A stretch of DNA of 64,000 bases from an uncultured Desulfospira sp. (GTDB taxonomy: Bacteria; Desulfobacterota; Desulfobacteria; Desulfobacterales; Desulfobacteraceae), in NCBI GenBank assembly GCA_963663165.1, contig OY760175.1, positions 5,728,001-5,792,000 of the forward strand, given 5' to 3'. The translations under genes were made by a program, and so were the position numbers. How positions within the stretch are numbered: the stretch's first letter is position 1; each line of letters starts with the position of its first letter. Below the pieces are notes generated by a model that saw only the letters and a list, made by a program, of their open reading frames with translations, was not told the DNA's origin and made no database searches. Of the stretch, positions 17,755 through 36,116 are shown piece after piece.

Positions 17755-18235
17755 GTTCGGATTTTATGGCCCTGATTCTTTCTTCAATGTCAAAGGCGTT
17801 GATGTCCTGACCCGGAAAAATGGCGATTCTTTTATACAGTTCGAGCAGCTCTTTTTCCAGTTTGACCGGCCTTGCCTTTTCAATGGAGAAATAGGCAAAC
17901 ATGGTGAGCATGACGGATTTGACCTGTTTTTCCTTGGGGCTGATCATGACAAACTCAACCAGGTTTCTTAAGGCATCAAAGGTGAGCATCCGGCTCCAGA
18001 TTTCTAAGTCTTCTCCCATGCGGGCAGGTTTGAGATACCGGATGTTGTGGGAGACCACGGCCCAGCCTTTTCCTGTTTTTTTCGCATGTTCAAAAACATC
18101 CAGGATGTGGTTGGTTCTCAGCTGTTCTTCCCTGGCATTGAGGAAATAGCTCAGGTAATGGGCATTGTTCAGATGGGAATAAGGATCACAGTCTTCAAAA
18201 TTGACCCTTTTTATACTTTTCATGGCCTGTTGCAT
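17726..18235 (-). CDS. Acyl-CoA thioesterase (hot-dog fold)
   Basis: DCDPYSHLNNAHYLSYFLNARE motif. Confidence 0.88.
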   Translation of the reverse strand: MQQAMKSIKRVNFEDCDPYSHLNNAHYLSYFLNAREEQLRTNHILDVFEHAKKTGKGWAVVSHNIRYLKPARMGEDLEIWSRMLTFDALRNLVEFVMISPKEKQVKSVMLTMFAYFSIEKARPVKLEKELLELYKRIAIFPGQDINAFDIEERIRAIKSELTATGRLDC

Positions 18236-18359
18236 GGGGCTTATTTATAGAACCGGCGATGAAAATACAAGAGAAAATAATGGGCTTGATCCCGAGGCTG
18301 GTTTGTGGGAAGGTAGACATACCTTCAAACCGCTCCGCCAAACAATATGGAGCCATGCC

Positions 18360-20469: not shown

Positions 20470-22038
20470 ATGGCCCTTCCGGTAAGCTGGAAAATTTTGC
20501 TCATAGATGATGAAAAAGATATCCGGGAAATTATCGGCATTACCCTGGAAGATGCCGGATATACGGTTGTCTATGCCCCTGACGGCCATACCGGCCTTAT
20601 GCTGGCGGCCCGGGAAAACCCCCAGATCGTGATCACGGACATCAAGATGCCCGGCCTGAACGGCCTGGAAGTCCTTGAAAAAATAAAAAAGCTCAAGCCG
20701 GAAACCGAAGTTATCGTCACCACAGGGTACGGCGATGTTGAAAAGGCGGTGACCGCCCTTCAATACGATGCCTCGGATTTTATTTCCAAACCCATTGAGG
20801 ACAAGACCCTTCACATGGCCCTGAAACGGGCCAAACAGCGGTATCTGGACAGAAAACAACTCTCGGACTACACCCTTTTACTGGAAAATGAAAACCTGAA
20901 AACCAGTGCCGAGCTGGTTAAAAATGTGGAATTTCAAAGCAGCCTGATTGAAAATTCCATGGACGGCATCCTTGGATGCGACCACCAGGATCTGGTGATT
21001 ACCTATAACCGTTCCATGGAAAACCTGCTCGGATACCCAAAGACCGAAGTTTTAAAGAAAAGGAAGATCCAGGAGCTCTTTGCCCCGGATGCGGTTTCCC
21101 GCCTGAAACAGGATCTTGCCGGCAAAGGCTTTGGGGGGATCAATAAGCTGACCTTTTATGAAACCGCCATGCTGTCACAGCATAAGGAAGAGATCCCGGT
21201 CCAGCTGTCCGGGTTTATTTTAAGGCCGGACAACATGGAAGACGTCATGGTTCTCTTTGTGGCTGATCTTCGCCAGGTCAGGAACCTGGAACAGGAAAAA
21301 GCGGACCAGGCCCGGATGCTTCACCAGGAAAAGATGATTTCCTTGGGACGGCTTGCCGCCTCCATTGTTCATGAGATCAACAATCCCCTGTCCGGGATAT
21401 TAAATTATATCCGGTTGATGATTAAAAAGCTGGGAAGGGAAATTGAAAACGGCGAAGGATCTGAAGAATCGGAAAAATTCAAGTCCTACCTGACCATTGT
21501 AGAATCCGAAACCCAGCGGTGTTCGGACCTGGTTTCCGGGCTACTCAAATTTTCCCGGAAGACCACCCTGGAAAAAAAGAAGATTGACGTCAATGAGCTT
21601 GTGGACCACAGCCTGATGCTGTGCAACCACAAGCTCGAACTGAGCAACATTGTGCTTAAAAAAAAGTACGCCCCGGGCACTTCTCATGTGTTTGGCGATT
21701 TCAACCAGTTGGAACAATGCATCATCAACCTGATTTTCAATGCCATCGACGCCATGGAAAAGGGCGGTATCCTGGTGGTGAAAACCGGGTTCCTCAAACA
21801 GGAAAACCTGGTTTTTATTTCCGTTAAAGACAATGGCAAAGGCATCCCAAAACAGGAACTCAACTTTATATTTGAGCCTTTTTTCACCACCAAAAAGGAA
21901 GGGCACGGTGTGGGCTTAGGCCTGTCCACGGCCTACGGCATCGTGGAAAACCATAAAGGAACCATTGTGGTGGAGTCCATTGAGGACCTGGGCTCGGAGT
22001 TTATGATTAAGTTGCCGCCCGAAAGGGAAATAGGCTGA
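20470..22038 (+). CDS. Cytoplasmic hybrid histidine kinase (REC-PAS-HisKA-HATPase)
   Basis: ILLIDDE...TDIKMP...SKP; ENSMDGI PAS; IVHEINNPL; GVGLGL. Confidence 0.92.
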   Translation: MALPVSWKILLIDDEKDIREIIGITLEDAGYTVVYAPDGHTGLMLAARENPQIVITDIKMPGLNGLEVLEKIKKLKPETEVIVTTGYGDVEKAVTALQYDASDFISKPIEDKTLHMALKRAKQRYLDRKQLSDYTLLLENENLKTSAELVKNVEFQSSLIENSMDGILGCDHQDLVITYNRSMENLLGYPKTEVLKKRKIQELFAPDAVSRLKQDLAGKGFGGINKLTFYETAMLSQHKEEIPVQLSGFILRPDNMEDVMVLFVADLRQVRNLEQEKADQARMLHQEKMISLGRLAASIVHEINNPLSGILNYIRLMIKKLGREIENGEGSEESEKFKSYLTIVESETQRCSDLVSGLLKFSRKTTLEKKKIDVNELVDHSLMLCNHKLELSNIVLKKKYAPGTSHVFGDFNQLEQCIINLIFNAIDAMEKGGILVVKTGFLKQENLVFISVKDNGKGIPKQELNFIFEPFFTTKKEGHGVGLGLSTAYGIVENHKGTIVVESIEDLGSEFMIKLPPEREIG

Positions 22039-22121: not shown

Positions 22122-25100
22122 ATGACCCAAGCACGACCAGAACCAGACCGTTCACACCCACCCCAGCTCAAGATCGGCTTTTACATCTGCCACTGCGGGG
22201 TGAACATTGCCGGCAAGGTGGATGTGGAAAACGTCAGGGATTATGTGGCAACCCTTGAAGGGGTCCATGTGTCAAGGGATTACAAGTTCATGTGTTCCGA
22301 GCCGGGCCAGGCCATGATTGAAAAAGACATCAAAGAACAGGGCCTTAACCGGGTGGTGGTGGCCTCCTGTTCGCCAAGGCTCCATGGCAAGACTTTTATG
22401 GAGGCCTGCCGGCGGGCCGGGCTCAATCCCTATTACTTTCAGATGGCCTCTGTCCGGGAGCAGGTATCCTGGGTCACGGCTGATGAAATTGTGGCCACCA
22501 CCAAGGCCAGGCACCTGGCCCACGCGGCGGTGGACCGGGTCAAATACCATGCCAGCCTGACCACCAAAACCAGCGGGGTCAATCCCAACGTGGTGGTGAT
22601 CGGCGGCGGGATCGCCGGCATGCAGGCGGCCATTGATATCGGCAACTCAGGCCATAAGGTTTTTCTCATTGAAAAGGACACCACCATTGGCGGCCACATG
22701 CTCCAGTTTGACAAAACCTTTCCCACCCTGGACTGTGCCGCCTGTATCGGGACCCCCAAGATGGTGGAGGTGGGCCAGAACCCCAACATTGAACTGCTCA
22801 GCTTCAGTGAAGTGACGGATGTATCCGGGTTTATCGGCAATTTTACCGTCACGGTCAAACGCAACCCCCGGTATGTGAGAGAAGACCTGTGTACGGGATG
22901 CGGGGAGTGCGCCAAGGCCTGTCCCGTATCTATTCCCAATTCATGGGATCTGGGCATGGCCGACCGGAAAGCCACCGGCCGGGCCTTCCCCCAGGCCATT
23001 CCCATTACCTTTAATATTGAAAAAAAGGATCGGGCCCCCTGTCAGGAGACCTGTCCGGCCGGTATCAATGTCCAGGGGTATATCCAGCTGATCAAGCTTA
23101 AAAAATTTGACCTGGCTGCCAAAATGGTCATGGAACGGGCCCCCTTTCCCGGGGTTCTGGGCCGGGTCTGTCCCCACCCCTGTGAAAGCCAGTGCCGCAG
23201 AAGCCAGGTGGACCAGCCGGTGGCCATCCGGGAACTCAAGCGGTTTGCCGCAGACCTGGGGTTCCCAGGACCCGAAGATATTCCCAAAATTCTGGACCGG
23301 GACGAGAAAGTCGCTGTTATCGGTGCCGGCCCCTGCGGGCTGACCGCCGCTTATTTTCTGCGCTTAAAGGGGTACCGGGTCACGGTGTATGAAAAATTGC
23401 CCGTCCCCGGCGGCATGCTCAAGACCGGGATTCCTTCCTACCGCCTGCCCGACAAGGTACTGGACCAGGAGATCAACCATATCCTGGATCACGGGGTAAC
23501 CCTGGTCACGGGCAAGGCCTTTGGCACGGATATTACTTATGACGGCCTGGTCAGTGACGGGTTTTCTGCGCTGTTTTTAAGTGCCGGGGCCCATGTATCC
23601 CTGACCTTAGGGCTTGCTGGAGAAACCGACACCCCGGGGGTGATGGATGCGGTCTCTTTTTTAAGGGATGTGAACCTGGGGAATCATACGGATCTGGGCG
23701 CTAAAGTGGTGGTGATCGGCGGGGGCAACGTGGCCGTTGACGCGGCAAGGTGTGCCCGGCGGATCAAAGATGCCGCCGTGACCATCCTTTACCGGAGAAC
23801 CCGGGATGAAATGCCCGCCTATGCCGAGGAAATTGAGGGGGCCATAGAAGAGCGTGTTGAACTTGAGCCCCTGACCACACCCATCGGCATTAAATCTGAA
23901 AACGGCCGGGTTACCGGGCTGCAATGTGTTAAAAACAAGCTTGGCGAGCCTGATGCCTCGGGCCGGCGCCGGCCGGTGATCATTGAAGGCTCTGAATTTG
24001 TAATCCCCTGTGACACTATTATTCCGGCCATTGGCCAGCAGACCGACTTTTCCTGGGCCGACACCATCCCCGGATTTGAGGTTACCCGGAACAACCGGGC
24101 CAAGGTAGACCCTGAAACCCTCCAGACCACGGTGGATAATCTGTTTGCCGGAGGGGATATGGTAACCGGGCCTGCCACGGTCATTGAGGCCATTGCCCAG
24201 GGCCGCCGGGCGGCTTTGGGAATAGATGCCTTTATTAACAAGCGGCTTGGGCAAAAAAGCGAAGCATCCGGGGCAGATCAGGACAGGATAGACCACGCTG
24301 CACCGGACTGGGCAGACATCCCGGAAGATACGAAGGTCCAGGATCGGGCCCACGGAAAATGGGCGGCCCCGGATTCAAGGGTCCGGTCTTTTGCGGAGGT
24401 GGAATCGGGCCTGACCCGGGACCAGGCCGTAACAGAGGCCGAGCGCTGCCTGAACTGCGGGGTCTGCTGCGAGTGTATGGAATGCGTCCGGGTCTGCGAA
24501 GCCGGGGCCGTGGATCACTTCATGGAAGAGGAGGTCCTTACCCTCCAGGCCGGCTCCATTATCCTGGCCACGGGATACGATACCATGGATCCGGCCTTGA
24601 GCAAGCCGTTTGGGTATGGGAAATTCCCCAATGTTTTTTCAGCCCTTGAATTTGAGCGGCTGTCCAATGCCACCGGCCCCACAGGGGGTAAAATTCTCAT
24701 GCGCGATGAAACGGGCGGTTTTACCAAACCACCGGACAGCGTGGCCATTGTCCACTGCGTGGGCTCAAGGGATGTGAACCACCACCTGTATTGTTCCAGG
24801 GTCTGCTGCATGTATGCCTTAAAATATACCCATCTGATCAAGGAAAAGGTGGGCCACGATACAAAGGTTTATGATTTTTATATTGATATGCGCTGCTTCG
24901 GGGAAGGGTATGAGGAGTTTTATCAGCGGTGCCAGGAGGAGGGCACCATCTTTATCCGGGGCAAGGTGGCATCGGTTACAGATCATGCCGTATCCCCCGA
25001 AGAAAAGGGCAAGCTCATTGCCCTGGCCGAGGATACCCTGTTGGGGGAACCGGTCCGGGTGCCTGTGGACATGGTGATTTTGTGTACGGCCATCCAGGCC

Positions 25101-25556
25101 CGGGAAGATGCCCCGGACATTGGCAGGATTTTAGGGGTGAACCAGGGCGCAGACGGGTTTTTCTTAGAAGAACACCCCAAGCTCGGCCCCTTGAACACGG
25201 CATCTGAAGGCGTGTTCCTGGCCGGGTGCTGCCAGAAACCCATGGATATCCCGGACACGGTTTCCCAGGCGTCGGGGGCGGCGGCCAAGGCCCTGTCCTT
25301 AGCGACCCGGGGCGTGGTGGAAATCGCCCCCACCATTTCCCATATTGACCCGGATATCTGCATCGGGTGCAAAACCTGTATCGGGCTTTGCCCCTATTCC
25401 GCTATTGAATTTGATGAACGGCGCGGCGTGTCCGTGGTCAATGAGGCCGTGTGCAAGGGATGCGGCTCCTGCTCCGGGGTCTGTCCGTCCGGGGCTGCCG
25501 CCAGCCGCCATTTTACACCCAGACAGATTTTTGCAGAAATAGGAGGGATTCTTTAA
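22122..25556 (+). CDS. hdrA: HdrA/HdrL-type flavoprotein with an inserted GltD-like NAD(P)-binding module
   Basis: GFYICHCG, VASCSP, GGGIAG, DKTFPTLDC, CVGSRD, CSRVCCMY; insert PCQETCPAG...GRVCPHPCE...GAGPCG...GGGNVA; ferredoxin motifs. Confidence 0.9.
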   Translation: MTQARPEPDRSHPPQLKIGFYICHCGVNIAGKVDVENVRDYVATLEGVHVSRDYKFMCSEPGQAMIEKDIKEQGLNRVVVASCSPRLHGKTFMEACRRAGLNPYYFQMASVREQVSWVTADEIVATTKARHLAHAAVDRVKYHASLTTKTSGVNPNVVVIGGGIAGMQAAIDIGNSGHKVFLIEKDTTIGGHMLQFDKTFPTLDCAACIGTPKMVEVGQNPNIELLSFSEVTDVSGFIGNFTVTVKRNPRYVREDLCTGCGECAKACPVSIPNSWDLGMADRKATGRAFPQAIPITFNIEKKDRAPCQETCPAGINVQGYIQLIKLKKFDLAAKMVMERAPFPGVLGRVCPHPCESQCRRSQVDQPVAIRELKRFAADLGFPGPEDIPKILDRDEKVAVIGAGPCGLTAAYFLRLKGYRVTVYEKLPVPGGMLKTGIPSYRLPDKVLDQEINHILDHGVTLVTGKAFGTDITYDGLVSDGFSALFLSAGAHVSLTLGLAGETDTPGVMDAVSFLRDVNLGNHTDLGAKVVVIGGGNVAVDAARCARRIKDAAVTILYRRTRDEMPAYAEEIEGAIEERVELEPLTTPIGIKSENGRVTGLQCVKNKLGEPDASGRRRPVIIEGSEFVIPCDTIIPAIGQQTDFSWADTIPGFEVTRNNRAKVDPETLQTTVDNLFAGGDMVTGPATVIEAIAQGRRAALGIDAFINKRLGQKSEASGADQDRIDHAAPDWADIPEDTKVQDRAHGKWAAPDSRVRSFAEVESGLTRDQAVTEAERCLNCGVCCECMECVRVCEAGAVDHFMEEEVLTLQAGSIILATGYDTMDPALSKPFGYGKFPNVFSALEFERLSNATGPTGGKILMRDETGGFTKPPDSVAIVHCVGSRDVNHHLYCSRVCCMYALKYTHLIKEKVGHDTKVYDFYIDMRCFGEGYEEFYQRCQEEGTIFIRGKVASVTDHAVSPEEKGKLIALAEDTLLGEPVRVPVDMVILCTAIQAREDAPDIGRILGVNQGADGFFLEEHPKLGPLNTASEGVFLAGCCQKPMDIPDTVSQASGAAAKALSLATRGVVEIAPTISHIDPDICIGCKTCIGLCPYSAIEFDERRGVSVVNEAVCKGCGSCSGVCPSGAAASRHFTPRQIFAEIGGIL

Positions 25557-26017
25557 TGAATGTCCAAGCGAACACCCAGGCCGTTGAACCGTCTTCTGAA
25601 CCGCCGGTATCCGCCTCAAATTCAGAACCGGTGATCATTGCCTTTGTCTGCAACTGGTGTACCTACACGGCCGCAGACCTGGCCGGCACCTCCCGCCTGA
25701 CCTATCCGGAAAATATCCGTCTGATCCGGGTCATGTGTACGGGCATGGTGGACCCCCAGTATGTGATCAAGGCCTTTCTGGAAGGGGCGGATGCGGTCCT
25801 GGTCTCCGGATGCCATCCCGGGGACTGCCACTATATCAACGGCAATTACAAGGCAAGAAGACGGATTCACATGCTCAAAACCATTCTGCCCCGGTTCGGC
25901 ATCGACACCAGACGGCTGCGGTTAACCTGGATCGGGGCCAGTGACGGGATTGAGTTTGCACATGTGATGACTCAGTTTAAGGATCAGGTGGTGGAGATGA
26001 TGAAAGCGGGAGAGTGA
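25556..26017 (+). CDS. mvhD: MvhD/FlxD-type [2Fe-2S] subunit
   Basis: FVCNWCTY, RVMCTG, GCHPGDCHY; TAATG overlap with the upstream gene. Confidence 0.9.
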   Translation: MNVQANTQAVEPSSEPPVSASNSEPVIIAFVCNWCTYTAADLAGTSRLTYPENIRLIRVMCTGMVDPQYVIKAFLEGADAVLVSGCHPGDCHYINGNYKARRRIHMLKTILPRFGIDTRRLRLTWIGASDGIEFAHVMTQFKDQVVEMMKAGE

Positions 26018-26150: not shown

Positions 26151-27305
26151 ATGAAAGATCGTGTGGGCCTTATTGAACCGGAAGAGAACAGTATCGTTGG
26201 CGGGATTCGGGTTTTTTTTAAGGGGCTGCTGGAAAAAAAGATAGTGGATGCGCTGTTTTTGCCCATGGGCAGGGGAAAGGCCGGGGTGGTGATGCCGGCT
26301 TTGGTGACGGATCCGGGGCGACTGGACCGGGCGGAGCCGTTTTCTCCGTGCTTCCCTTTGAATTCGGGCCGGATGGCCTCCCGGATATCCTGGCGAAAGT
26401 CGGGCCGGAAAACGGCTGTTCTGTTAAGGCCTTGCGAACACCGGGCCTTTGTGGAGCTGGTCAAGCTCAAACAGGGCAGCCGGGACGAACTGATCCTGAT
26501 AGGGACCGACTGCCCCGGTGCCCTTTCATGGAAAGATGTTGACGGGTATCTGGCCGGGGGGGCATGGGATTCCGATGCCTTTGTGAAACAGGTGTTTGGC
26601 GGCAACCCGTCACCTTTTGAGGCGGATTTGAACGGATCTGGATTCAGCATGGCCTGTCAAACCTGTGAGCATTGCTTCCCTGAGAATACGGATATCAACC
26701 TGGTCCTTCACGGGGCAGATCTGGGTGCCGGTATCCTGGCCGAGGCGGTCACGGAAAAGGGCCAAACCGTTCTTGAGGCCATGACGCTGCCTAAGGCGGC
26801 ACTGCCGGACAACCGGGATGATTTAAAAGAGCAGATCCTGGCCGGTTCAGCCTCGGCCAATCAGGCCATGCTTGAAGGGATTGAGGCCAAAACCAATACC
26901 ATGGAAAAGCTTGAAACTTTCTTTGACCGGTGCATCAACTGTTATAACTGCCGGAACATGTGCCCGGTCTGTTATTGCCGGGAGTGTGTGTTCAACACCG
27001 ATGTCTTTGTCTATCAGCCGGTTCAGTACCTTCAATGGGCCGAGAACAAGGGCTGTGTAAAATTGCCCACGGACACGTTGTTTTACCACCTCACCCGCAT
27101 GGCCCATATGAGCCATGCCTGTGTGGGCTGCGGCCAGTGTTCCAATGCCTGTCCTTCGGATATCCCCGTGTTTGAGCTGTTCAAGAGCGTTGCGGCATTG
27201 ACCCAGGACGCCTTTGAGTACCGGCCCGGCATGGATGAGGACCAGGCCCCGCCCCTGGCCGTCTTCAGGGAGAAGGAGCTGGAGGAGGTTGTGGGGATTT
27301 CTTAA
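26151..27305 (+). CDS. FdhB/FrhB-like Fe-S protein with 4Fe-4S dicluster
   Basis: LRPCE, IGTDC, CINCYNCRNMCPVCYCREC, CVGCGQCSNACP. Confidence 0.8.
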   Translation: MKDRVGLIEPEENSIVGGIRVFFKGLLEKKIVDALFLPMGRGKAGVVMPALVTDPGRLDRAEPFSPCFPLNSGRMASRISWRKSGRKTAVLLRPCEHRAFVELVKLKQGSRDELILIGTDCPGALSWKDVDGYLAGGAWDSDAFVKQVFGGNPSPFEADLNGSGFSMACQTCEHCFPENTDINLVLHGADLGAGILAEAVTEKGQTVLEAMTLPKAALPDNRDDLKEQILAGSASANQAMLEGIEAKTNTMEKLETFFDRCINCYNCRNMCPVCYCRECVFNTDVFVYQPVQYLQWAENKGCVKLPTDTLFYHLTRMAHMSHACVGCGQCSNACPSDIPVFELFKSVAALTQDAFEYRPGMDEDQAPPLAVFREKELEEVVGIS

Positions 27306-27514: not shown

Positions 27515-30500
27515 ATGAAAGACAGTGTTGGTCGGGTGCTGGTGGCCGGGGCCGGGGTGAGCGGGATTCGCTCGGCCCTGGATCTGGCCCGGATGGGTGT
27601 TCAGGTCCTGCTCATTGACAGGGCTGATCACACGGGGGGGCTGCTCAGCCAGCTGGATACCCAGTTCCCGTCCCAGGGGTGCGGGTTCTGCCGGGGGCTG
27701 CCCATGGTGGACCGGGACCGGTCTTCCCAAAGCTGTCTGAGAAAGGGGTTTGCCCATGATAACATAGAAATCCTTTTGTCCACCCAGATCATGTCCATTG
27801 AAGGCGAGGCCGGGAATTTTACCGTGACCCTGAAGCAGGGGCCGGCCATGATTGACCCGGAGCGGTGTATTGGGTGCGGTCAGTGCGAACCGGTCTGTCC
27901 CGTGGAAACAAAGGATTTCTTCAATGCCGGGATGACCCGGAAAAAAGCCGTGTACCTGCCCGTTCCCCAGTCCTTTTCCAATGCCTGGACCATTGATTCC
28001 ACGGCCTGTACCCGGTGCGGGGAGTGTGTGAAGGTCTGCCCGGTGGACGCCATCCGCCTCACGGGGCAGGACCGGGAAAGATTTAAGGTGCTGGTGGTTG
28101 ATGATGAGGCCATTGTCCGGGAGTCCACCCGGGAGTGGCTCAAGGAAGAGGGGTTTTTCACGGCCGCGGCGGATTCCGGGCAAAAGGCCCTGGAACTGCT
28201 GGCGGAAGGGGCGGAAAAGGAACAGCCCTTCAGCATGATGCTCACGGATATCAAGATGCCGGGCATGGACGGGGTGGAGTTGCTCACCCGGGCCAAAGAG
28301 ATCAGCCCGGATCTTACCGTGATCATGATGACCGCTTATGCAGCCGTGGATTCAGCTGTGGACGCCATGAAACTCGGGGCTATGGATTACCTGACCAAGC
28401 CCTTTGACCCGGATGTGCTGGTGGCCATGACCCTTGAGGTGTTCCAGGAATATGAAATGGCCAAGGCCCGTTCGGAAACCGTGGACGCCGTTATTCTTTC
28501 CGCCGGAGCCCGGCTGTTTGAACCGGAACGGACAAAGAATGCCTACGGATATGGGAGCCTTCCCGGTGTGGTCACCAGCCTGGAACTTGAACGGATGCTC
28601 AGCCCGGCCGGTCCGGCCGGCATGGATTTCCTTCACCCGGCCCGGGAAAGGCCGTTGGAGAAAATCGCCTGGTTCCAGTGCGTGGGGTCCCGGGATGTCC
28701 AGGATCAGGCCCCGTTCTGTTCTTCGGCCTGCTGCATGATTTCCATTAAACAGGCTGTCCTGGTCCAGAAACAGGCCAGGAAATCCGGCCGAAAGGTGGA
28801 GACCGTGATTTTTTACATGGACATGCGGACCATGGGCAAACCCTTTGAGCAATACCGGCAGCAGGCCCGGGACGAGTATGGGGTGAGGTTTGTCCGGGCC
28901 AGGATCCATTCCCTTGGAGAGACGGCAGATTCTGAACACCGGCGTCTGATGGCCCGGTATACCGATGATGGGGGCGCTCTTCATGAGGAGGGGTTTGACC
29001 TGGTGGCCCTGGCCGTGGGCACCCGGCCCGGCCGGCAGATGGAGGAGATTTCCAGGGCCAACCAGATTCAGATGAACGCTTTTGGCTTTGTTGAGCCCCA
29101 GGCCTTTTCCCTGGTTCAAACTTCCCGGGAGGGCATTTTTGCCGCCGGCACGGTCACCGGGTTTAATGATATTTCCGACAGCGTTGTGTCGGCATCGGCA
29201 GCGGCCATGGCAGCGGCCAAGGCGTTATCGGCCAACGGCACCCCCCTTTGGAAGCCGCTGGACGACCATGGCCCGGCCCTTCTGGCATCCCTTTCAAGAC
29301 AGATTCCCCAGATCGGAATCATTCTAAGTTTCAATGAAAAAATGGATGAGCCCGGATTCAAGGCCCTTAAGGCAGACCTTGAACGAGATCCGGATGTGGT
29401 CCGGGTGGAGGCCCGGGAAGAATTTGACCTGGACCGGCTGGCTGAGTTTGTCGATAAATTTAAATGCAACCGGCTGATCATAGGGCTTTGCCGGCCCCGG
29501 GAAGGCAGCGGGCTGATGAAATCCCTTCAAAAGGCAACCCGTCTGCCGGACCGGTTTATCGAGGTACTGGACATCAGCCGCCTGGATAATGCCAGGCCCC
29601 ATACCCGTTTGTCCCGGGCACTTAAGGTCAGGGTTTCCCGGCTTAAGTTTTTCAATCCAATGCCCGTTGAAAGCCTGGCAGGCCAGGTGCCTGAACCGTC
29701 CGCCCTGGTCATCGGGGGCGGGATCGCCGGCATGACGGCCAGCCGCTGCATGGCCGATGCCGGGTTCAAGGTGGACCTGGTGGAAAAAGGCGATGCCCTG
29801 GGCGGCAACCTGCGCTGGATGGCGCAGACCCCTCTGGGCCATGATATCCAGGCCTTTCTTGAGGACCAGGTTAAAAAAGTCGAATCCCACGAAAACATTA
29901 TGGTTTATAAAAACAGCGCCGTGGAAGGGGCTGTGGCCGTTCCGGGCGGGTTCACCAGTTTCCTTTCCCGGAAAACCAGCGAACCGGATGCTCCGGACAA
30001 CTTTTCCGTGACCCATGCCGTCACCCTTCTGGCCACGGGCGGTTCCCAGGCACCGCTGCCGGAAAGCGATTTCACTGACGGCACTCCAAATGCCGTCACC
30101 TTTACCCAGGAAGAATTTCAAAAGGCATTAACGGATGGCCAAGTGGCGCCTGAAAAGCTTGACACCGTGGTCATGGTCCAGTGCTCCGGGACCAGGACCC
30201 CGGCCACCCGGAACTACTGCTCGCGCATCTGCTGTGTCCGGGCCTTGAAAACAGCCCTGGATTTAAAAGAAAAAAATCCGGATATGATGATTTTTATCCT
30301 GTACCGGGACATGATGAGCTTCGGTTTTATGGAAGATCTGTACACCCGGGCCAGAGAAAAGGGGGTGCTTTTTATCCAGTACGAACCGGACCAGCCCCCC
30401 CGGGTTGACATTTCACCTGAAGGGGTGACGGTCACGGCAAGGGACCATGTCCTCAACCGTCCCGTTCAGATCCAGAGCGATGCTGTGATCCATGCCACGG

Positions 30501-30973
30501 GCATTGAGCCGGATCTTCCCAGGGGCCTTGCCGAACTCTACGGCGCCGGCCTGGACGAATTTAACTTCTTCAAGGAGGCGGATTACAAATTCAGGCCTGT
30601 GGACAGTATGAACTACCGGGTCTTTTCCTGCGGCCTCTGTCTGAAACCCAGCACCATTGACGAAAGCATTACCCAGGCCCAGGCCGCAGCGGCCCGGGCT
30701 CTCCAGATCCTGGGCCCGGAACGGTTAAGATCCGGCCGGGTGGTGGCCCACACCCGGACGGCCACCTGCACGGTCTGTGAAATGTGCGTCAATGCCTGTC
30801 CCTACGCGGCCCGATCCGTGGACCCCATTGAAGACAAAATCGTCATTGATCCCCTGGCCTGCCAGGGATGCGGGGTCTGCGCCGCGGTCTGTCCCAGTGA
30901 TTCGGCCATCCTGGAAGGCTTTACCGCCCAGCACATGTTCGACACCATAGACCAGATGATAATGGACCATTAA
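27515..30973 (+). CDS. hdrA: Tandem (two-FAD-module) HdrA-like protein with an internal response-regulator receiver domain
   Basis: GAGVSG and GGGIAG FAD motifs, CVGSRD/CSSACC and CSGTR/CSRICC clusters, ferredoxins; REC VLVVDDE...TDIKMP...MTAY...LTKPF at about 28082-28440. Confidence 0.88.
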   Translation: MKDSVGRVLVAGAGVSGIRSALDLARMGVQVLLIDRADHTGGLLSQLDTQFPSQGCGFCRGLPMVDRDRSSQSCLRKGFAHDNIEILLSTQIMSIEGEAGNFTVTLKQGPAMIDPERCIGCGQCEPVCPVETKDFFNAGMTRKKAVYLPVPQSFSNAWTIDSTACTRCGECVKVCPVDAIRLTGQDRERFKVLVVDDEAIVRESTREWLKEEGFFTAAADSGQKALELLAEGAEKEQPFSMMLTDIKMPGMDGVELLTRAKEISPDLTVIMMTAYAAVDSAVDAMKLGAMDYLTKPFDPDVLVAMTLEVFQEYEMAKARSETVDAVILSAGARLFEPERTKNAYGYGSLPGVVTSLELERMLSPAGPAGMDFLHPARERPLEKIAWFQCVGSRDVQDQAPFCSSACCMISIKQAVLVQKQARKSGRKVETVIFYMDMRTMGKPFEQYRQQARDEYGVRFVRARIHSLGETADSEHRRLMARYTDDGGALHEEGFDLVALAVGTRPGRQMEEISRANQIQMNAFGFVEPQAFSLVQTSREGIFAAGTVTGFNDISDSVVSASAAAMAAAKALSANGTPLWKPLDDHGPALLASLSRQIPQIGIILSFNEKMDEPGFKALKADLERDPDVVRVEAREEFDLDRLAEFVDKFKCNRLIIGLCRPREGSGLMKSLQKATRLPDRFIEVLDISRLDNARPHTRLSRALKVRVSRLKFFNPMPVESLAGQVPEPSALVIGGGIAGMTASRCMADAGFKVDLVEKGDALGGNLRWMAQTPLGHDIQAFLEDQVKKVESHENIMVYKNSAVEGAVAVPGGFTSFLSRKTSEPDAPDNFSVTHAVTLLATGGSQAPLPESDFTDGTPNAVTFTQEEFQKALTDGQVAPEKLDTVVMVQCSGTRTPATRNYCSRICCVRALKTALDLKEKNPDMMIFILYRDMMSFGFMEDLYTRAREKGVLFIQYEPDQPPRVDISPEGVTVTARDHVLNRPVQIQSDAVIHATGIEPDLPRGLAELYGAGLDEFNFFKEADYKFRPVDSMNYRVFSCGLCLKPSTIDESITQAQAAAARALQILGPERLRSGRVVAHTRTATCTVCEMCVNACPYAARSVDPIEDKIVIDPLACQGCGVCAAVCPSDSAILEGFTAQHMFDTIDQMIMDH

Positions 30974-30983
30974 GGAGGTCTCC

Positions 30984-31064
30984 ATGAAAACAATTTTAAA
31001 CGCCGGCACTGCCATTTTCATCCTTTATCCTTCATCCTTCATCCTTTTTGACCGGGGGGTGTGA
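30984..31064 (+). CDS. Putative 26-aa coupling peptide MKTILNAGTAIFILYPSSFILFDRGV
   Basis: AAGGAGG RBS right after the hdrA stop; its stop overlaps the hdrC ATG (TGATG). Confidence 0.4.
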   Translation: MKTILNAGTAIFILYPSSFILFDRGV

Positions 31065-31606
31065 TGACCCAGACAACCAAAGCACCGCCAAAGGAGGTCA
31101 TAAAGGTAAAGGAAATGCTCAAGACCTGCATCCAGTGCGGCACCTGCACCGGGTCCTGCCCCAATGCGCCATTCATGGACTTGACCCCCCGGAAAATGTG
31201 GCGCATGGTCCTGATGGACCGCCTGGACCAGTTGTTTTCAAGCAAGACCTTTATTTTGTGTTCGTCCTGTTACTACTGTACCCTGCGCTGCCCCCGGGGC
31301 CTTGAGCTGACAACGGCCATGGGGTTGTTAAAGCAGGCGTCCTCCAGAATGGATATAAAGGGGGCAAACCGGACAAGGCAATTTTACAAGGCCTTCATGG
31401 ACAGTGTGGAAAAGCACGGCAGGGTCAGGGAAACCGAGTTTATGACCCATTATTTCATGGCCATGAAAAATCCGTTGCTGCCCCTGGAATTTACACCGTT
31501 AGGGCTCAAGCTCATGGCCAAGGGGAAAATGCATTTTCAATCCCCCTTTGCCACGGGAAACAAGCTGTCCAAACTGTTTCAAAAAATCCGGGAACTGGAG
31601 GGCTGA
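31061..31606 (+). CDS. hdrC: Heterodisulfide reductase subunit C-like
   Basis: CIQCGTCTGSCP and CSSCYYCTLRCP. Confidence 0.88.
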   Translation: MMTQTTKAPPKEVIKVKEMLKTCIQCGTCTGSCPNAPFMDLTPRKMWRMVLMDRLDQLFSSKTFILCSSCYYCTLRCPRGLELTTAMGLLKQASSRMDIKGANRTRQFYKAFMDSVEKHGRVRETEFMTHYFMAMKNPLLPLEFTPLGLKLMAKGKMHFQSPFATGNKLSKLFQKIRELEG

Positions 31607-31607
31607 T

Positions 31608-32480
31608 ATGGATTACCTTTACTATCCGGGCTGTTCCCTTGAGGGTACGTCGGTTGAATACGATACGGCCACCCGGGTTTTCATGGACTGGGCCGGGGCA
31701 AATCTGACGGAGATAGAGGACTGGACCTGCTGCGGGGCCAGTGCCGCAGAATCAAGGTCTTACCTGCTGTCCCATGTCCTGCCGGCCAGAAACCTGGCCC
31801 TTGCGGAGACCCAGGATGAAACAAACCAGATCCTGGTGCCCTGCAGTGCCTGTTATCTGAACTTGAAAAAAACCGAGCAGGCCGTTAAAAAGGATAAGGC
31901 GTTTTTAGATCAAATTAATCAGGTCCTGGCAGAGGATGGCCTAACCTATCATGGAAGGGTTAAGGTCCGGCACCTGCTGGACGTGCTGTCCCGGGACGTG
32001 GACCCCGGCCGGATTCGCGAACAGGCCGGGAACCGGATGGAAGGTCTTTTGGCCGCCCCTTATTACGGATGCCAGTGCCTGCGCCCATTTGCCGTGTTTG
32101 ACGATCCTGAAGCGCCTTCTTCCATGACCCCGTTGATCCGGGCCACCGGGGCCACGGTGTTTGAATGGGATATGGGGGCCCAGTGCTGCGGGGCTTCCCA
32201 TACCAGCACCAAGCCCGATGCCGGGCTGGCCCTGGTGGAAAAGATCCTGGCCGCAGCCAAAGGCGCGGATCTGATTTTAACGGTCTGCCCCATGTGCCAG
32301 ATGAACCTGGAAGGCTTTCAACAAAAGATCTCCCGGGGCCGGGGGCTTGAAATCCCGGTGCTGTACCTGCCCCAGTTTCTGGGGCTTGCCCTGGGAAAAA
32401 CGGCCGATGAAGTGGGACTGAATTTGAATTTGTCGAATGTGGATAGGCTGAAGGGGATTAGGCTGAAGACTGAAGGCTGA
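31608..32480 (+). CDS. hdrB: Heterodisulfide reductase subunit B-like
   Basis: YYPGCS, WTCCGA, PCSAC, YYGCQ, CCGA, CPMCQMNL (two CCG domains). Confidence 0.92.
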   Translation: MDYLYYPGCSLEGTSVEYDTATRVFMDWAGANLTEIEDWTCCGASAAESRSYLLSHVLPARNLALAETQDETNQILVPCSACYLNLKKTEQAVKKDKAFLDQINQVLAEDGLTYHGRVKVRHLLDVLSRDVDPGRIREQAGNRMEGLLAAPYYGCQCLRPFAVFDDPEAPSSMTPLIRATGATVFEWDMGAQCCGASHTSTKPDAGLALVEKILAAAKGADLILTVCPMCQMNLEGFQQKISRGRGLEIPVLYLPQFLGLALGKTADEVGLNLNLSNVDRLKGIRLKTEG

Positions 32481-32551: not shown

Positions 32552-34864
32552 ATGACCAAACTTTTTTCATACCTGCGCCACAGCCTGGTGTCCAAGCTGA
32601 TTTTTTCAGTGGGGCTGACCGTTGTGCTGTCCATTTCCGCCTGGGCTTATTTTAATATCAACAATATCAGAACCCAGATCATGAAAAATGTGATCGCCTC
32701 CACGGACCGGCTCACCAACTCCATTAAGCTGGGCACCCACTATGCCATGATGCTCAACTCCAGGGACGACATCAACCAGATTATCAACAACATCGCCACC
32801 CAGCCTGAGATCGAGACCATCCGGATTTACAACAAAGACGGCCAGATCAAATTCACCAACAAAGCCGAAGAAATCGACCGGGTGGTGGATATCAAGGAGG
32901 TGGCCTGTGACATCTGCCACAAACAGGACCCGCCGCCGGCCGTGATCGGCCGGGCCCAGCGGACCCGGTTCTTTTCTTCTGAAGACGGGACAAGGCTTTT
33001 GGGGGTGGTCCAGCCCATCGGCAACGAGCCGGGCTGTGCCGAATCCTGCCATTTCCACCCCAAAGGCCAGAAGATCCTGGGCTCTTTGGACGTGGTGGTT
33101 TCTTTGAGCGAAATTGACGCCCAGATCCTGGACATTGAAAAGGGGATACTTGAACTGGCGGTATTTACCATTCTCATCACTTCGGTGATCATATTTTTAT
33201 CCATCATGCAGTTTGTGAAAAAACCCATTATCACCCTGATTGACGGCACCCGTAAAATTGCCCAGGGCCAGTATGACCAGCAGATAGACATTGGCCAGGA
33301 TGTGGAGCTCGGGCTTCTTGGCCATGCCATCAAGACCATGGGAAACCAGATCGGCTTAAACCAGGCCGAGTTGAAAAAGCAGAAAAACGAGTACCAGCAG
33401 CTGTTTGAAACCGCCCCGTGCATGATCACGGTCCAGGACCGGGAGTATCGCCTGATCCGGTGGAACCGGGTGTTCCAGGAACGGTTTGACCCGGAACCCG
33501 GGTCCCACTGCTACCGGATTTATAAAGGCTTAGAGGAAAAATGCCGGGACTGCCCCATTGACAAGACCTTTGAAGACGGGAAATCCCACTACGGGGAGGC
33601 CGAAGGCGTGGGAAAAGACGGGGAAAAAACCCACTGGATATTCATTACCTCTCCCATCCGGGATGCAGACGGTAATATCACGGCCGCCATTGAGATGAGC
33701 CTGGACATTACCCAGAGAAAACGCCTGGAAAAGGAGCTGCAGCGATCTGAAGAAAAATACCATGCCATTTTCAACAATATTTCCAATCCCGTGTTTGTGG
33801 TCAGCCAGCAAAGTTTTCATATTCTGGACTGCAATGCCAAGGCCGTGGAAGATTACCGGCAGCCCCGGGACAAGCTCTTAGGGAAAAATTTTGGTGAATT
33901 TTTTCTGGCCGGGGAACGCGAAGCACTGGTTCAAAAGATGGCCACATGCCGGGAGATCAACAAGGTAAGACACCAGGTCACGGACAACGTCTTTATTTTT
34001 GTGGACATGTGGGTCTCCCCGTCGGTTTATTCGGGCCGGCAGGTGCTTTTAGTGACCATCAACGACATTACAAAGCGCCTTGAAACCGAACAGCACCTCA
34101 TGCATGCCAGCAAAATGGCGACGTTAGGGGAAATGTCCACAGGCATTGCCCACGAGCTGAACCAGCCCCTGTCCGTGATCAAGTCGGCCTCATCCTTTTG
34201 CATGAAAAAGATGCGGCAAAATGAAATGATCCCAAAAGAGACCTTTGACAAGCTGATCACCAAGATGGATGCCAACGTGGACCGGGCCGAAAAAATTATC
34301 CATCATATGCGCGAGTTTGCCAGAAAATCCGAGATCCGTCTGGTCAGAACCAATATCAATTCGGTGCTTGGGCGGACTTTTGAGATGTTCAACCAGCAGC
34401 TCAAGATCCGGGGCATTGACGTGATCTGGGACAAGGACGACACCCTGCCGGATATCTTAGGGGACCCGGACCGGCTCGAACAGGTGTTTATCAACCTGAT
34501 CATCAATGCCCGGGACGCCATTGAAGAAAAATGGGAAAAACAGGACGGCTCCCAAAAGGAACCGGACAAGATTACCATTGTCACTGAAGAAAAAGATGGG
34601 TTTCTCCATGTCCATATCCAGGACACGGGAATCGGCATTCAAACGGATCTTTCCGACAAGGTGTTTGAACCTTTTTTTACCACCAAGGAGGTGGGCAAGG
34701 GAACCGGCCTGGGCCTGTCCATTTCCTACGGGATTATCAAAGACTGTTCCGGGACCATCCGGATCAAGCCGGCTGAAAAGGCAGGAGCCGTGGTCTGTAT
34801 TTCTTTTCCGGTGCCTGACGTGATTGAAGATGAACTGGTGATTGAAAGGGAGGGAAACTCATGA
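32552..34864 (+). CDS. Membrane sensor histidine kinase (periplasmic CxxCH-type motifs, HAMP, 2 PAS)
   Basis: Two TM; CDICH and CAESCH; PAS with CYRIYKGLEEKCRDCP; IAHELNQPL; GTGLGL. Confidence 0.9.
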   Translation: MTKLFSYLRHSLVSKLIFSVGLTVVLSISAWAYFNINNIRTQIMKNVIASTDRLTNSIKLGTHYAMMLNSRDDINQIINNIATQPEIETIRIYNKDGQIKFTNKAEEIDRVVDIKEVACDICHKQDPPPAVIGRAQRTRFFSSEDGTRLLGVVQPIGNEPGCAESCHFHPKGQKILGSLDVVVSLSEIDAQILDIEKGILELAVFTILITSVIIFLSIMQFVKKPIITLIDGTRKIAQGQYDQQIDIGQDVELGLLGHAIKTMGNQIGLNQAELKKQKNEYQQLFETAPCMITVQDREYRLIRWNRVFQERFDPEPGSHCYRIYKGLEEKCRDCPIDKTFEDGKSHYGEAEGVGKDGEKTHWIFITSPIRDADGNITAAIEMSLDITQRKRLEKELQRSEEKYHAIFNNISNPVFVVSQQSFHILDCNAKAVEDYRQPRDKLLGKNFGEFFLAGEREALVQKMATCREINKVRHQVTDNVFIFVDMWVSPSVYSGRQVLLVTINDITKRLETEQHLMHASKMATLGEMSTGIAHELNQPLSVIKSASSFCMKKMRQNEMIPKETFDKLITKMDANVDRAEKIIHHMREFARKSEIRLVRTNINSVLGRTFEMFNQQLKIRGIDVIWDKDDTLPDILGDPDRLEQVFINLIINARDAIEEKWEKQDGSQKEPDKITIVTEEKDGFLHVHIQDTGIGIQTDLSDKVFEPFFTTKEVGKGTGLGLSISYGIIKDCSGTIRIKPAEKAGAVVCISFPVPDVIEDELVIEREGNS

Positions 34865-35985
34865 TTGAACGGCCGGATATTTCCATTCTTATCGTGGATG
34901 ACGAGGAGGATATCCGGGATGTCCTTGAAATCGCCCTCCTGGACTTAGGGTATAAGGTGTTCACGGCAGATAACGGGCAATCCGCCTTTGACGTGTTTAA
35001 AGATGCCCCCACCAATGTGGTGATCACGGACATTAAAATGCCGGTTATGGACGGGATCCAGTTGCTGCGAAAAGTCAAGGACCATACCCCGGATACGGAA
35101 GTGATCATGATTACCGGTCACGGGGACATGGATTTGAGCATTGCCAGTCTTAAAAACCATGCCGCCGATTTTATCACCAAGCCGGTGAATGTGGATGTGC
35201 TGGAGATTTCCGTGGCCAAGGCCGTGGAAAAGATCACGGCCAAAAGACAGCTGGCCGAGTATACCCAGAGGCTTGAAGAACTGATCATGGAAAAGACGGA
35301 CCTGGCCTCCCACCTGTCTTCTCTGGGGCTGATGATGGGGACCGTTTCCCACAACATCAAAGGCCTTTTGACCAACCTGGACGGCGGCATTTACCTGACC
35401 CGGTCCGGCATGAAAAAACAGGATACCGCCAGCATGGAAGACGGGCTTGCCATGTTGTCCCAGGCCGTGGACCGGATCAAGAAAATGGTCATGGATGTCC
35501 TGCTTTACTCCAAGGAACGGAAACTGGAGATTGTCCCGGTGCCCACCCGGGAATTTGCCTTACAGGTCCAAAAGACCATGGCGCCCAAGCTCAAATCAAC
35601 CGACATTTTATTTAAGTGCCAGGATGCCCTGGCCCCTGAAACCATTCCCATGGACCGGGAATTCATGCTGGCCGCCCTGATCAATATCCTGGACAACGCC
35701 GTGGACGCCTGTTTAAGCGATAAGGCCAAAACCGATCACGAAATCCGGTGCGACATCGAAAAAAAGGACCGCCAGGCCATGATCCGGATCACGGACAACG
35801 GCTGCGGCATGGACCCCGCCATCAAGGAAAAGATTTTTGATTTGTTTTTTTCTTCTAAAGGCACCCAAGGCACGGGGTTTGGCCTGTACATCTCCAACTC
35901 GGTCATCAAGCAGCACGGCGGCACCATCAGCGTTATGTCAGTTAAGGGCAAGGAGACGGTGTTTACGATTGTGCTGCCGTGTTAG
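34861..35985 (+). CDS. Hybrid histidine kinase (REC-HisKA-HATPase)
   Basis: ILIVDDE...TDIKMP...TKP; VSHNIKG H-box; DNGCG, GTGFGL. Confidence 0.9.
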   Translation: MIERPDISILIVDDEEDIRDVLEIALLDLGYKVFTADNGQSAFDVFKDAPTNVVITDIKMPVMDGIQLLRKVKDHTPDTEVIMITGHGDMDLSIASLKNHAADFITKPVNVDVLEISVAKAVEKITAKRQLAEYTQRLEELIMEKTDLASHLSSLGLMMGTVSHNIKGLLTNLDGGIYLTRSGMKKQDTASMEDGLAMLSQAVDRIKKMVMDVLLYSKERKLEIVPVPTREFALQVQKTMAPKLKSTDILFKCQDALAPETIPMDREFMLAALINILDNAVDACLSDKAKTDHEIRCDIEKKDRQAMIRITDNGCGMDPAIKEKIFDLFFSSKGTQGTGFGLYISNSVIKQHGGTISVMSVKGKETVFTIVLPC

Positions 35986-36080
35986 GGCGGGTGGGAAAGT
36001 GAGCAGGTGGGAAAGTGGGCCGGTGGGAAAGTGGGCCGGTGAGAAAGTGAGCAGGTGGGAAAGGGAGACGGTGAGCCGGG
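35986..36080. repeat. Octamer tandem repeat block
   Basis: GTGGGAAA/GTGAGCAG/GTGGGCCG units. Confidence 0.8.
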
Positions 36081-36116
36081 GATTCGGATCTCCGTTTTTT
36101 TTTCATGAAATTTATT

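Follow-up and report, generated by a model that had tools for sequence, protein, structure and literature searches.

Can a two-component signal act directly on an HdrA-type flavoenzyme? The question is raised by one gene in a 64,000-nucleotide stretch of DNA from an uncultured Desulfospira sp. (contig OY760175.1, positions 5,728,001 to 5,792,000), the whole of which was analysed and is called the window. The split of electrons between low-potential ferredoxin and high-potential acceptors in anaerobes is determined by HdrA-type flavoproteins, which work via large conformational changes; we know of no regulatory input on these enzymes. The gene (27515..30973, plus strand), defined by its open reading frame (ORF), Pfam and NCBIfam matches, and fold, encodes a 1152-residue fused double HdrA-like flavoprotein with an inserted receiver domain (REC), designated P0001 and referred to as HdrA(REC). 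Response regulators with enzymatic output are known; what comparison of sequences indicates to be new here is the nesting of a phosphorylatable-type REC inside an HdrA-type flavoenzyme. Direct phospho-control of this enzyme is well supported by comparison, though unproven. The first-pass annotation of the window, made from its letters, knew of no characterised example, and a literature search, with supplements and some comparative-genomics sources outside its scope, likewise found no paper describing a REC in HdrA.

The REC insertion spans residues 183-317 (28061..28465, +), as delimited by Pfam, by the secondary structure of a predicted model, and by superposition. Pfam Response_reg (PF00072) matches residues 192-305 with an E value of 7e-30 and 103.9 bits against a cut-off of 30.2, which is far beyond chance, and the NCBIfam matches of the domain are to FixJ-, NtrC-, and AtoC-type receivers. 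The first-pass annotation had placed a complete receiver at about 28082-28440 (residues 190-308), and both the Pfam match and the modelled fold bear this out. It had also listed the catalytic residues as intact, and the translation contains all of them: the acidic pair D196/D197 (VVDDE), the predicted phospho-acceptor D245 (LTDIKMP; codon at 28247..28249, +), T273 (IMMTAY), and K295-P296 (YLTKP). The switch aromatic residue is Y292.

An AlphaFold2 model of HdrA(REC), built on 47 sequences, has a mean predicted local distance difference test score (pLDDT) of 80.8 and a predicted template modelling score (pTM) of 0.82. The REC in this model is a (βα)5 fold with the elements from β1 to α5 in order, as assigned by DSSP (β1, 191-195; α1, 199-211; β3, 241-245; β4, 268-273; β5, 291-294; α5, 299-317). 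Superposition of model residues 185-318 on solved receivers with VIA-align gives Z scores of 20-22 and root mean square deviations (rmsd) of 1.0-1.4 Å over 116-125 residues. The match with 3crn_B has a Z score of 22.3 and an rmsd of 1.2 Å over 125 residues, and the other matches are Spo0F, NtrC1, PleD, and RR468. Foldseek agrees with the VIA-align superpositions of the model, including those of the HdrA-like parts described later.

The position of the REC in the flavoprotein should be noted. Residues 6-182 of HdrA(REC) align with residues 144-310 of a solved HdrA (5odc_A), and residues 318-515 align with residues 319-507. Since the two flanks align up to residue 310 and from residue 319 of 5odc_A, the REC is a clean insertion that replaces an eight-residue connector (5odc_A 311-318) directly after the inserted ferredoxin domain. 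These positions and the alignment confirm the earlier placement of the REC between the inserted ferredoxin (CTRCGECVKVCP, residues 165-176) and the resumption of the FAD (flavin adenine dinucleotide) domain at ETVDAVILSAG (residues 321-331). In several REC-less HdrA-like ORFs of the same genome, both flanks are adjacent (e.g., 3883569-3883847 and 3883266-3883553). In the model, helix α5 (299-317) is continuous with the strand 319-323 of the FAD domain without any linker, and β1 (191) starts 15 residues after C175, the final cluster ligand of the ferredoxin insert. The REC is thus modelled as spliced at the C-terminal hinge of the ferredoxin insert, with its signalling face (T273, Y292, K295, and α5) continuous with the flavin domain.

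Pfam, the 5odc_A alignment, and superposition of the model all give two HdrA-like units in one chain. FAD-binding Rossmann folds start twice (residues 8-46 and 730-768). Model residues 5-575 superpose on the HdrA core of 8rvu_a (residues 151-576) with a Z score of 28.7 and an rmsd of 1.6 Å over 415 residues, whereas model residues 596-1150 superpose on whole HdrA chains from the second residue onward (5odc_A 2-651, Z 22.9; 8rvy_A 11-654, Z 22.5, rmsd 3.7 Å over 542 residues). Since each unit of the model superposes on solved HdrA, the protein of this sulfate-reducer-type bacterium is, as modelled, a fused double HdrA.

Unit 1 starts with the N-terminal part of a thioredoxin-reductase-like FAD domain (residues 1-110; 27515..27844, +), identified by Pfam FAD_oxidored (residues 8-46) and the 5odc_A alignment, with the sequence GAGVSG and the CxxC pair C56/C59. 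C59 aligns with the position of Cys197 in solved HdrA. The inserted ferredoxin domain follows (residues 111-182; 27845..28060, +); it has eight Cys for two [4Fe-4S] clusters, matches Pfam Fer4_7 at residues 117-179, and aligns with 5odc_A 236-310. After the REC, the FAD domain continues (residues 318-572; 28466..29230, +; aligned with 5odc_A 319-507) with the [4Fe-4S] motif C389/C402/C406/C407, next to which K412 is invariant in the homologue alignment. An inter-unit domain (residues 596-725; 29300..29689, +) is homologous to the N-terminal, mobile cluster domain of HdrA, as judged from the alignment of model residues 596-1150 from residue 2 of 5odc_A. Unit 2 has a second thioredoxin-reductase-like FAD domain (residues 726-1075; 29690..30739, +; Pfam Pyr_redox_2 at residues 731-849 and VIA-align) with the motif C890/C902/C906/C907 and no ferredoxin insert. 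The C-terminal ferredoxin domain, with eight Cys at residues 1085-1126, and the stop codon occupy 30740..30973 (+); this part matches Pfam Fer4_10 at residues 1082-1127 and aligns with 5odc_A 514-652. Both units therefore show, by superposition and conserved Cys, the thioredoxin-reductase-like FAD fold with an adjoining [4Fe-4S] motif, and their accessory domains are complementary: the CxxC pair, ferredoxin insert, and REC are in unit 1, and the N-terminal-type domain and C-terminal ferredoxin are in unit 2. The reading frame starts with ATG and is open throughout, and GGGAGG sits 5 nucleotides 5' of the start codon. The 209-nucleotide spacer before the gene contains two short tandem arrays at 27308-27393, AGGCTGA repeated 4.4 times and GTGAGAAA repeated 5.9 times.

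The name HdrA given in the first-pass annotation is supported by the fold, the cluster motifs, and the gene context (hdrB, hdrC, and mvhD alongside, as in relatives), but it needs qualification for the fused double form and for the NCBIfam HdrA equivalog models, whose cut-offs are missed (NF040770, 533.9 vs 1100; NF041891, 439.2 vs 1300; NF041778, 426.2 vs 1400). By these profiles, the protein is HdrA-like and is not an equivalog of methanogen HdrA.

Is the receiver under selection as a phosphorylatable domain? A homologue search with residues 110-420 gave 2226 proteins at an E value of 1e-3 or better among 7996 scored. The conservation counts given here refer to the best 120 of the 2226 cluster representatives, the query included. 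PF00072 matches all 120 proteins, the lengths of which are 862-1219 residues. A survey of the DD/D/T/K residues had been suggested as a check, and its result is clear: D196, D197, D245, T273, Y292, and P296 are present in 120/120 and K295 in 119/120. The eight Cys residues of the insert, C56/C59, and the flavin-side cluster motif are also kept in 120/120, and the unit 2 Cys residues C890/C902/C906/C907 in 119/120. When domain conservation is expressed as the share of alignment columns at 95% identity or more, the REC (54/121) is followed by the N-terminal FAD part (45/110), the ferredoxin insert (26/75), the flavin core (63/250), unit 2 (60/350), and the inter-unit domain (9/153). By this measure, the REC is the most conserved domain, pointing to the strongest purifying selection in the protein.

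The source names of the best 120 are either "response regulator" or "heterodisulfide reductase subunit A/A2"; the databases name the REC-HdrA fusion after either its receiver or its HdrA part. The Desulfobacula toluolica homologue (P0032), for example, is named "HdlA5"; it is 64% identical in the searched region and has the REC. Among representatives at 50% identity, 15 of the best 150 show an unbroken match to the ferredoxin-REC-FAD query over its whole length. The architecture also occurs in at least 10 of 400 other genomes sampled across the phylum (E value of 1e-50 or better; at least seven families), a lower bound because five candidates were scored per genome. It is present at 29 of 80 loci of named genome records, which include Desulfobacula, Desulfotignum, Desulfobacteraceae, Desulfosarcinaceae, Desulfococcaceae, Syntrophobacterales, Desulfocurvus, Desulfovibrionaceae, and Desulfohalobiaceae. 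The genome of the window, a single contig of 6.74 Mb, has one REC-HdrA gene. The possibility raised at the outset that the fusion is an assembly chimera or unique to this genome is excluded, as is a frameshift, by this spread, the architecture shared by 120/120 homologues, the single-contig genome, the open frame, and a 92%-identical protein in another assembly.

The three neighbouring kinases mentioned in the first-pass annotation are indeed encoded on the plus strand on both sides of the hdr operon. A REC-PAS-HisKA-HATPase hybrid kinase (20470..22038; Pfam; AtoS-like in NCBIfam) lies directly upstream of hdrL. A membrane sensor kinase with a periplasmic domain, HAMP, two PAS, HisKA, and HATPase domains (32552..34864; Pfam) lies downstream, and the start of a REC-histidine-kinase protein (34861..35985; Pfam, NCBIfam, and our own kinase profile) overlaps its stop by 4 nucleotides. 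By NCBIfam, all three are AtoS/NtrB-like, and the HdrA REC is NtrC/AtoC/FixJ-like. The window holds four REC domains, and that of HdrA is the only kinase-free one in the hdr cluster.

To what extent do kinases accompany the REC elsewhere? Ninety-one loci were scanned with REC and kinase-core profiles built from the genome of the window; 37 unique loci are REC-bearing and 51 are REC-less. Downstream kinases on the same strand, no more than 4.5 kb away, are found at 20 of 30 REC-bearing loci and at 3 of 36 REC-less ones. Locus L058, where the kinase overlaps the hdrA stop, would raise the former count to 21. Where both flanks extend at least 9 kb, any kinase is found within 10 kb at 12/13 REC-bearing and 6/15 REC-less loci.

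Five REC-bearing loci have a decayed receiver. The six key positions read DDDTYK at the other 32 unique REC-bearing loci (two of which are cut by contig ends), and in the decayed receivers they read TPDAVK (L010), TPDAAR (L034), AGDIYT (L036), ADDGFK (L037), and HPACIW (L038). The same decay is seen in P0137 and P0141 of the 50% representative library. This pseudo-receiver clade consists of Desulfovibrionaceae and Desulfohalobiaceae type records, and the acidic pair, the Thr, and often the Lys are lost in it. Orthologs of the membrane kinase, defined by at least 45% identity and 60% coverage, are found at 20/24 loci that have an intact REC and at least 5 kb of downstream sequence, and at 0/5 loci with a decayed REC (Fisher test, p = 0.0011). 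The corresponding counts for the REC-kinase are 17/24 and 0/5. Across these loci, then, the kinase pair goes along with an intact phospho-site, and loci with a decayed site lack it. Loss of the Asp in homologues had been named beforehand as an outcome that would speak against the proposal; such loss is found only in this one minority clade, which itself lacks the downstream kinase pair. The pattern has exceptions. Among the intact loci, L001 lacks a kinase over 7.3 kb, the kinases at L009 and L014 are on the opposite strand, and L019 has a different kinase right after hdrB; at L087, the hdrA next to a kinase ortholog has no REC.

Phylogenetic trees built after removal of the REC columns covered 64 of the 91 loci, excluding fragments shorter than 900 residues, forms longer than 1300 residues, and three duplicates. 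In both FastTree and IQ-TREE trees, the REC-bearing proteins lie on one side of a branch (support of 100), as do the five decayed (100) and the 29 intact ones (98), indicating that the REC was inserted into HdrA once. Upstream, the decayed clade retains a hybrid kinase and a REC-sigma-54 activator, genes that fit transcriptional control alone in that clade.

The membrane kinase suggests what the signal might be. Two membrane helices are predicted in it, and between them lies a periplasmic stretch of ~160 residues (32669-33196 of the window) with the motifs CDICH (residues 119-123) and CAESCH (residues 162-167). C119, C122, H123, C162, C166, and H167 are invariant in 18/18 aligned orthologs; in a wider ortholog set including three truncated rows, the first haem-type motif is found in 18/22. 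The stretch scores 30.2 bits with Pfam PF21563 (Mcp40H-20_sensor; cut-off 27) and has a weak match to 3b42_A at the second motif (E value of 0.029), both of which we take to be PAS-like periplasmic sensors with c-type haem from Geobacter chemoreceptors. In the first PAS domain on the cytoplasmic side, four Cys residues (C290, C320, C331, and C334) are invariant. Since the haem-type motifs and the PAS Cys residues are invariant, the membrane kinase is probably a haem/redox sensor kinase with a redox input.

How could phosphorylation reach the electron path? In methanogen HdrA, the ferredoxin insert is the exit for the low-potential electron, and the flavin is reached under the control of an N-terminal domain that is mobile and carries a cluster (PMC13518236 and PMC9012536). 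In BamE, a fused HdrA dimer, the relay cluster lies 23 Å from the ferredoxin insert and, after a change of state, 12 Å from it, according to a preprint (bioRxiv 10.64898/2026.04.10.717634). We put at an even chance the reading that phosphorylation of Asp245 by the co-encoded kinases re-positions the ferredoxin arm and gates the low-potential electron branch. The membrane kinase, directly or via the REC-kinase proteins, would hand phosphate to Asp245. The ensuing change of the α4-β5-α5 face (T273, Y292, and K295) would be transmitted mechanically through the linkerless α5-flavin strand and the short β1 junction, and the flavin and relay cluster would come to stand at another distance from the two clusters of the ferredoxin insert, or become more or less accessible to them. 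Within seconds, the Hdr complex could thereby be turned on or off or have its direction changed. As input, the kinase relay would read the redox state sensed by the periplasmic haems and by the PAS domains in the cytoplasm, and parallel transcriptional control would run via a sigma-54 activator. That the bacterial tandem HdrA bifurcates electrons is itself inferred. More tentatively, and with somewhat less than even confidence, we propose the picture as a whole: a periplasmic haem-sensing kinase relay throws a phosphoryl switch in the Hdr core to open or close the ferredoxin branch in seconds, as the first post-translational two-component control of a bifurcation-type enzyme, in a design that evolved at least twice.

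The first-pass annotation had put the proposal more strongly, as two-component signalling on a central energy-conserving redox enzyme rather than on transcription. Action on the enzyme is favoured by the intact, selected REC, its hinge position, and the co-inherited kinases. The words "central" and "rather than on transcription" are overstated. Several HdrA paralogs are present in the genome, and the D. toluolica ortholog HdlA5BC is undetected in proteomes, as reported in PMC5109826. A sigma-54 activator lies in the cluster, and relatives have REC-sigma-54 activators in their hdr clusters. Both enzyme-level and transcriptional control probably act.

Several observations weigh against gating of the ferredoxin arm through Asp245, of which the non-detection of HdlA5BC in those proteomes is one. 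A search for sequencing runs of this organism listed none of RNA. In the inter-unit domain of the window's protein, only C659 is left of four conserved Cys residues. The three lost here are kept in 118-119 of the best 120 homologues and C659 in 119. No frameshift in the window's gene explains the loss; the 92%-identical protein from another assembly has the same loss, and a relative of the same family (L009) retains the Cys residues. C651, C745, and C1042, in turn, are Cys in this lineage only, among the best 120. As an N-terminal cluster domain of the HdrA type, the protein thus has the fold and C59 at the Cys197 position, with an incomplete Cys set. In the HdrA and BamE models (PMC9012536, PMC13518236, and bioRxiv 10.64898/2026.04.10.717634), the cluster bound by the lost Cys residues is the relay from the flavin to the ferredoxin insert. 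This relay cluster may be absent or rebuilt in this lineage, and the very branch proposed to be gated by the REC may be broken or rewired.

The comparative evidence also has its weak sides. The decayed loci form one clade, so that decay of the site and absence of the kinases count, on the trees, as one event and not five. That clade keeps the domain without its acidic pocket, which indicates that the domain also has a phosphorylation-independent role. No kinase ortholog is nearby at 4 of the 24 intact-REC loci. With kinases near 6 of the 15 REC-less hdr clusters and a sigma-54 activator in the cluster, adjacency alone would fit purely transcriptional control as well. The donor among the three kinases is not singled out: at 15 matched loci, too few for covariation, the mean pairwise identities of the kinase DHp helix (0.85), α1 of the HdrA REC (0.71), and α1 of the REC-kinase (0.58) give a weak lean to the membrane kinase.

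Signalling might instead run outward, the HdrA REC being a phosphate sink or an acceptor that is accessible depending on the redox or conformational state of the enzyme and that reports this state to the kinase relay and to sigma-54 transcription. An intact phospho-site and conserved kinases are equally expected in this case, and the two REC-kinase hybrids and the sigma-54 activator in the cluster are typical of branched relays with competing receivers; the REC-sigma-54 activators in clusters of relatives point the same way. However, the sigma-54 activator of the window (18201..19745, +; PAS, sigma-54-interaction AAA+, and helix-turn-helix domains by Pfam) has no REC, so that the cluster encodes no transcriptional receiver as a competitor. 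The tight splice seen in the model, with α5 continuous with the flavin strand, exceeds the needs of a sink, and fusions of N-terminal REC domains to HdrL, described later, point to enzymes as outputs. We therefore regard outward signalling as unlikely.

The receiver could also control assembly, if the phosphorylated α4-β5-α5 face paired REC domains or docked on HdrL, MvhD, or the iron-sulfur protein of the cluster, so that a super-complex forms or dissolves. NtrC-, FixJ-, and AtoC-type receivers dimerise through α4-β5-α5, and the HdrA REC is nearest to these types. This face is the best-conserved part of the REC, with a mean pairwise identity of 0.81 in the 15 matched loci, and solved Hdr complexes are dimers of protomers, as stated in PMC9012536. 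On the other hand, the fused double HdrA supplies its own partner unit and does not require a further dimer. The data at hand do not separate assembly from gating of the arm; we rate assembly as distinctly unlikely.

Least of all do we favour a REC that mainly holds the ferredoxin insert, with the kinases acting on other receivers and the module here perhaps partly decayed: a whole clade does retain the domain with a destroyed acidic pocket, three of four Cys residues of the neighbouring relay-cluster domain are lost in this lineage, and other partners exist among the roughly 205 REC and 119 kinase domains of the genome (counted with profiles built from the same genome), but the phospho-site is kept in all of the best 120 homologues (K295 in all but one), the REC is the best-conserved domain, it has 7 changes in 125 residues relative to the 92%-identical protein and none at the key residues while the Cys-less stretch varies freely, and the clade with the decayed site also lacks the kinase pair, so that such a spacer role is very improbable.

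Gating by a receiver is easier to envisage if receivers have been attached to Hdr-type proteins in other ways, and a second design is found. P0133 has three intact N-terminal REC domains followed by a complete HdrA. Among the best 120 relatives of its REC-HdrA junction (query included), 26 have one to three N-terminal REC domains; these are mostly HdrL-type proteins (about 1410-1440 or 1597 residues), with some plain HdrA and one NuoE-like protein (P0278). The other 94 are REC-less, the full-length ones being about 1136 residues. In many hdr clusters, moreover, a stand-alone REC gene lies directly upstream of hdrL. These (REC)1-3-HdrL/HdrA proteins (P0133, P0269-P0293) share with HdrA(REC) a REC with intact key residues on an HdrA-type flavoprotein of the same bacterial group. 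Their receivers are, however, terminal and in tandem on the HdrL subunit, whereas that of HdrA(REC) is single and nested. From these architectures, receiver domains have been joined to Hdr-type proteins more than once. The ferredoxin-insert region also seems to be a hot spot for inserted modules, because HdrL carries an NfnB/GltD-like module where the tandem HdrA carries the REC.

Among receivers that control an enzyme in the same polypeptide, CheB, PleD/WspR, and RpfG are established cases with a phosphorylatable REC. In these proteins, the REC is a terminal module with a linker to its output domain, which is a signalling enzyme; in HdrA(REC), the receiver is nested inside the iron-sulfur flavoenzyme fold of energy metabolism. 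Among the HdrA-type proteins, the folds of both units match methanogen HdrA of HdrABC-MvhAGD and related complexes (5ODC, 7BKB, 8RVU/8RVY, and 9SFI). The FAD site, the C-x12-C-x3-CC motif with its Lys, the ferredoxin insert, the C-terminal ferredoxin, and the hdrB, hdrC, and mvhD neighbours are shared, whereas HdrA(REC) fuses two units that divide the accessory domains between them and has the REC at the place of 5ODC 311-318. Because the organism is bacterial, the substrate of its complex is presumably not the heterodisulfide of coenzymes M and B (CoM-S-S-CoB).

A close likeness is to BamE of the class II benzoyl-CoA reductase from Geobacter metallireducens, here compared by its description in the available part of bioRxiv 10.64898/2026.04.10.717634; its PDB entries are not among the structure matches obtained for HdrA(REC). 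BamE also has two thioredoxin-reductase-like FAD units per chain, starting with unit 1, and its CxxC pair Cys59-Cys62 corresponds to C56/C59 near residue 60 of HdrA(REC). Cryo-electron microscopy shows the same division of labour between the units, the ferredoxin insert being the low-potential exit, with an HdrBC-like partner that takes the high-potential branch and an MvhD-like adaptor; the two conformational states differ in the distance from the relay cluster to the ferredoxin insert. That part of the preprint describes no REC, and BamE feeds a tungsten benzoyl-CoA reductase, whereas the HdrA(REC) cluster has HdrCB and HdrL. The fused HdrA3/HdrA4 of anaerobic methanotrophic (ANME) archaea, termed its "own heterodimeric partner" in the accessible text of PMC9012536, is likewise proposed to have complementary units, one with the Cys197-type ligand and the other with the N-terminal cluster domain and C-terminal ferredoxin. 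The order of the units is reversed relative to HdrA(REC), and no REC appears in that text, which also mentions NfnB-like insertions in the ferredoxin insert of other HdrA proteins, comparable with the neighbouring HdrL.

Three systems are alike in gene content. HdrABC/HdrL of Syntrophobacter fumaroxidans (Sfum_0819-0824) has the same gene set of hdrL, mvhD, iron-sulfur protein, and hdrABC, a likeness of genes only; according to PMC5947623, it is abundant only with sulfate, and confurcation and service to DsrC are its proposed roles. In Desulfobacterium autotrophicum HRM2, locus VIII consists of hdrL, hdrA4, hdrCB, a response regulator, and a histidine kinase, again a likeness of genes only (PMC2702500). 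HdlA5BC of D. toluolica has the same gene set (PMC5109826), and its HdlA5 carries the REC. The parts of these three papers that were available (PMC5947623, PMC2702500, and PMC5109826) do not mention a receiver domain in HdrA.

The REC at the hinge of the low-potential arm, inherited with a haem-type periplasmic sensor kinase, narrows the question to one Asp in a defined complex and three candidate kinases. If gating of the arm by Asp245 holds, two-component signalling would extend from gene expression, motility, and second messengers to direct control of a core redox enzyme, and the ability of marine sulfate reducers to change electron flow more quickly than by transcription would have an explanation. 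Such gating would also offer a natural handle, in the form of beryllofluoride (BeF3-) or D-to-E variants, to trap conformational states of HdrA-type enzymes.

The remaining genes of the cluster are all on the plus strand. Between the hybrid kinase and HdrA(REC), the HdrL-like protein (22122..25556; Pfam Fer4_20 and Pyr_redox_2) is an HdrA interrupted in its ferredoxin-insert region by an NfnB/GltD-like NAD(P)H module; positions 1-300 of the HdrA2 profile match its residues 17-311, and positions 293-651 of the HdrA profile match residues 774-1144. The ORF of the MvhD/FlpD-like subunit is listed at 25451..26017 (Pfam FlpD, E value of 5e-52), and its true start is probably later because the domain begins at residue 62. 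A 384-residue iron-sulfur protein (26151..27305), with weak Fer4_10 and AsrA-like matches, is conserved in the cluster, the orthologs of relatives having 42-60% identity. Downstream of HdrA(REC) are an HdrC-like subunit (31061..31606; Pfam and NCBIfam) and an HdrB-like subunit with CCG domains (31548..32480 as listed; Pfam CCG and NCBIfam), the profile match of which begins at residue 22. The order hdrL-mvhD-FeS (iron-sulfur)-hdrA(REC)-hdrC-hdrB holds in every relative whose contig is long enough to show it, across several families; in a sub-group of relatives, a kinase directly follows hdrA and no hdrCB is found there. A terminator-like hairpin followed by a T run (36077..36103, +; a consensus match only) lies after the final cluster gene.

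A scan of the window for sigma-54 promoters with a consensus sequence gave 31 matches, compared with 37 expected by chance, and a further promoter scan yielded no more than matches to a consensus. The sites at 19751 and 20320 were accordingly not taken as evidence, the match count being no higher than chance. A classical pair, a kinase (5956-7764) and a 450-residue REC protein (7761-9113), is located ~20 kb upstream, outside the hdr cluster. The cluster is flanked by a flagellin gene (15521-16357, +) and by the gene of a 1104-residue PKD-domain protein (36494-39808, minus strand).

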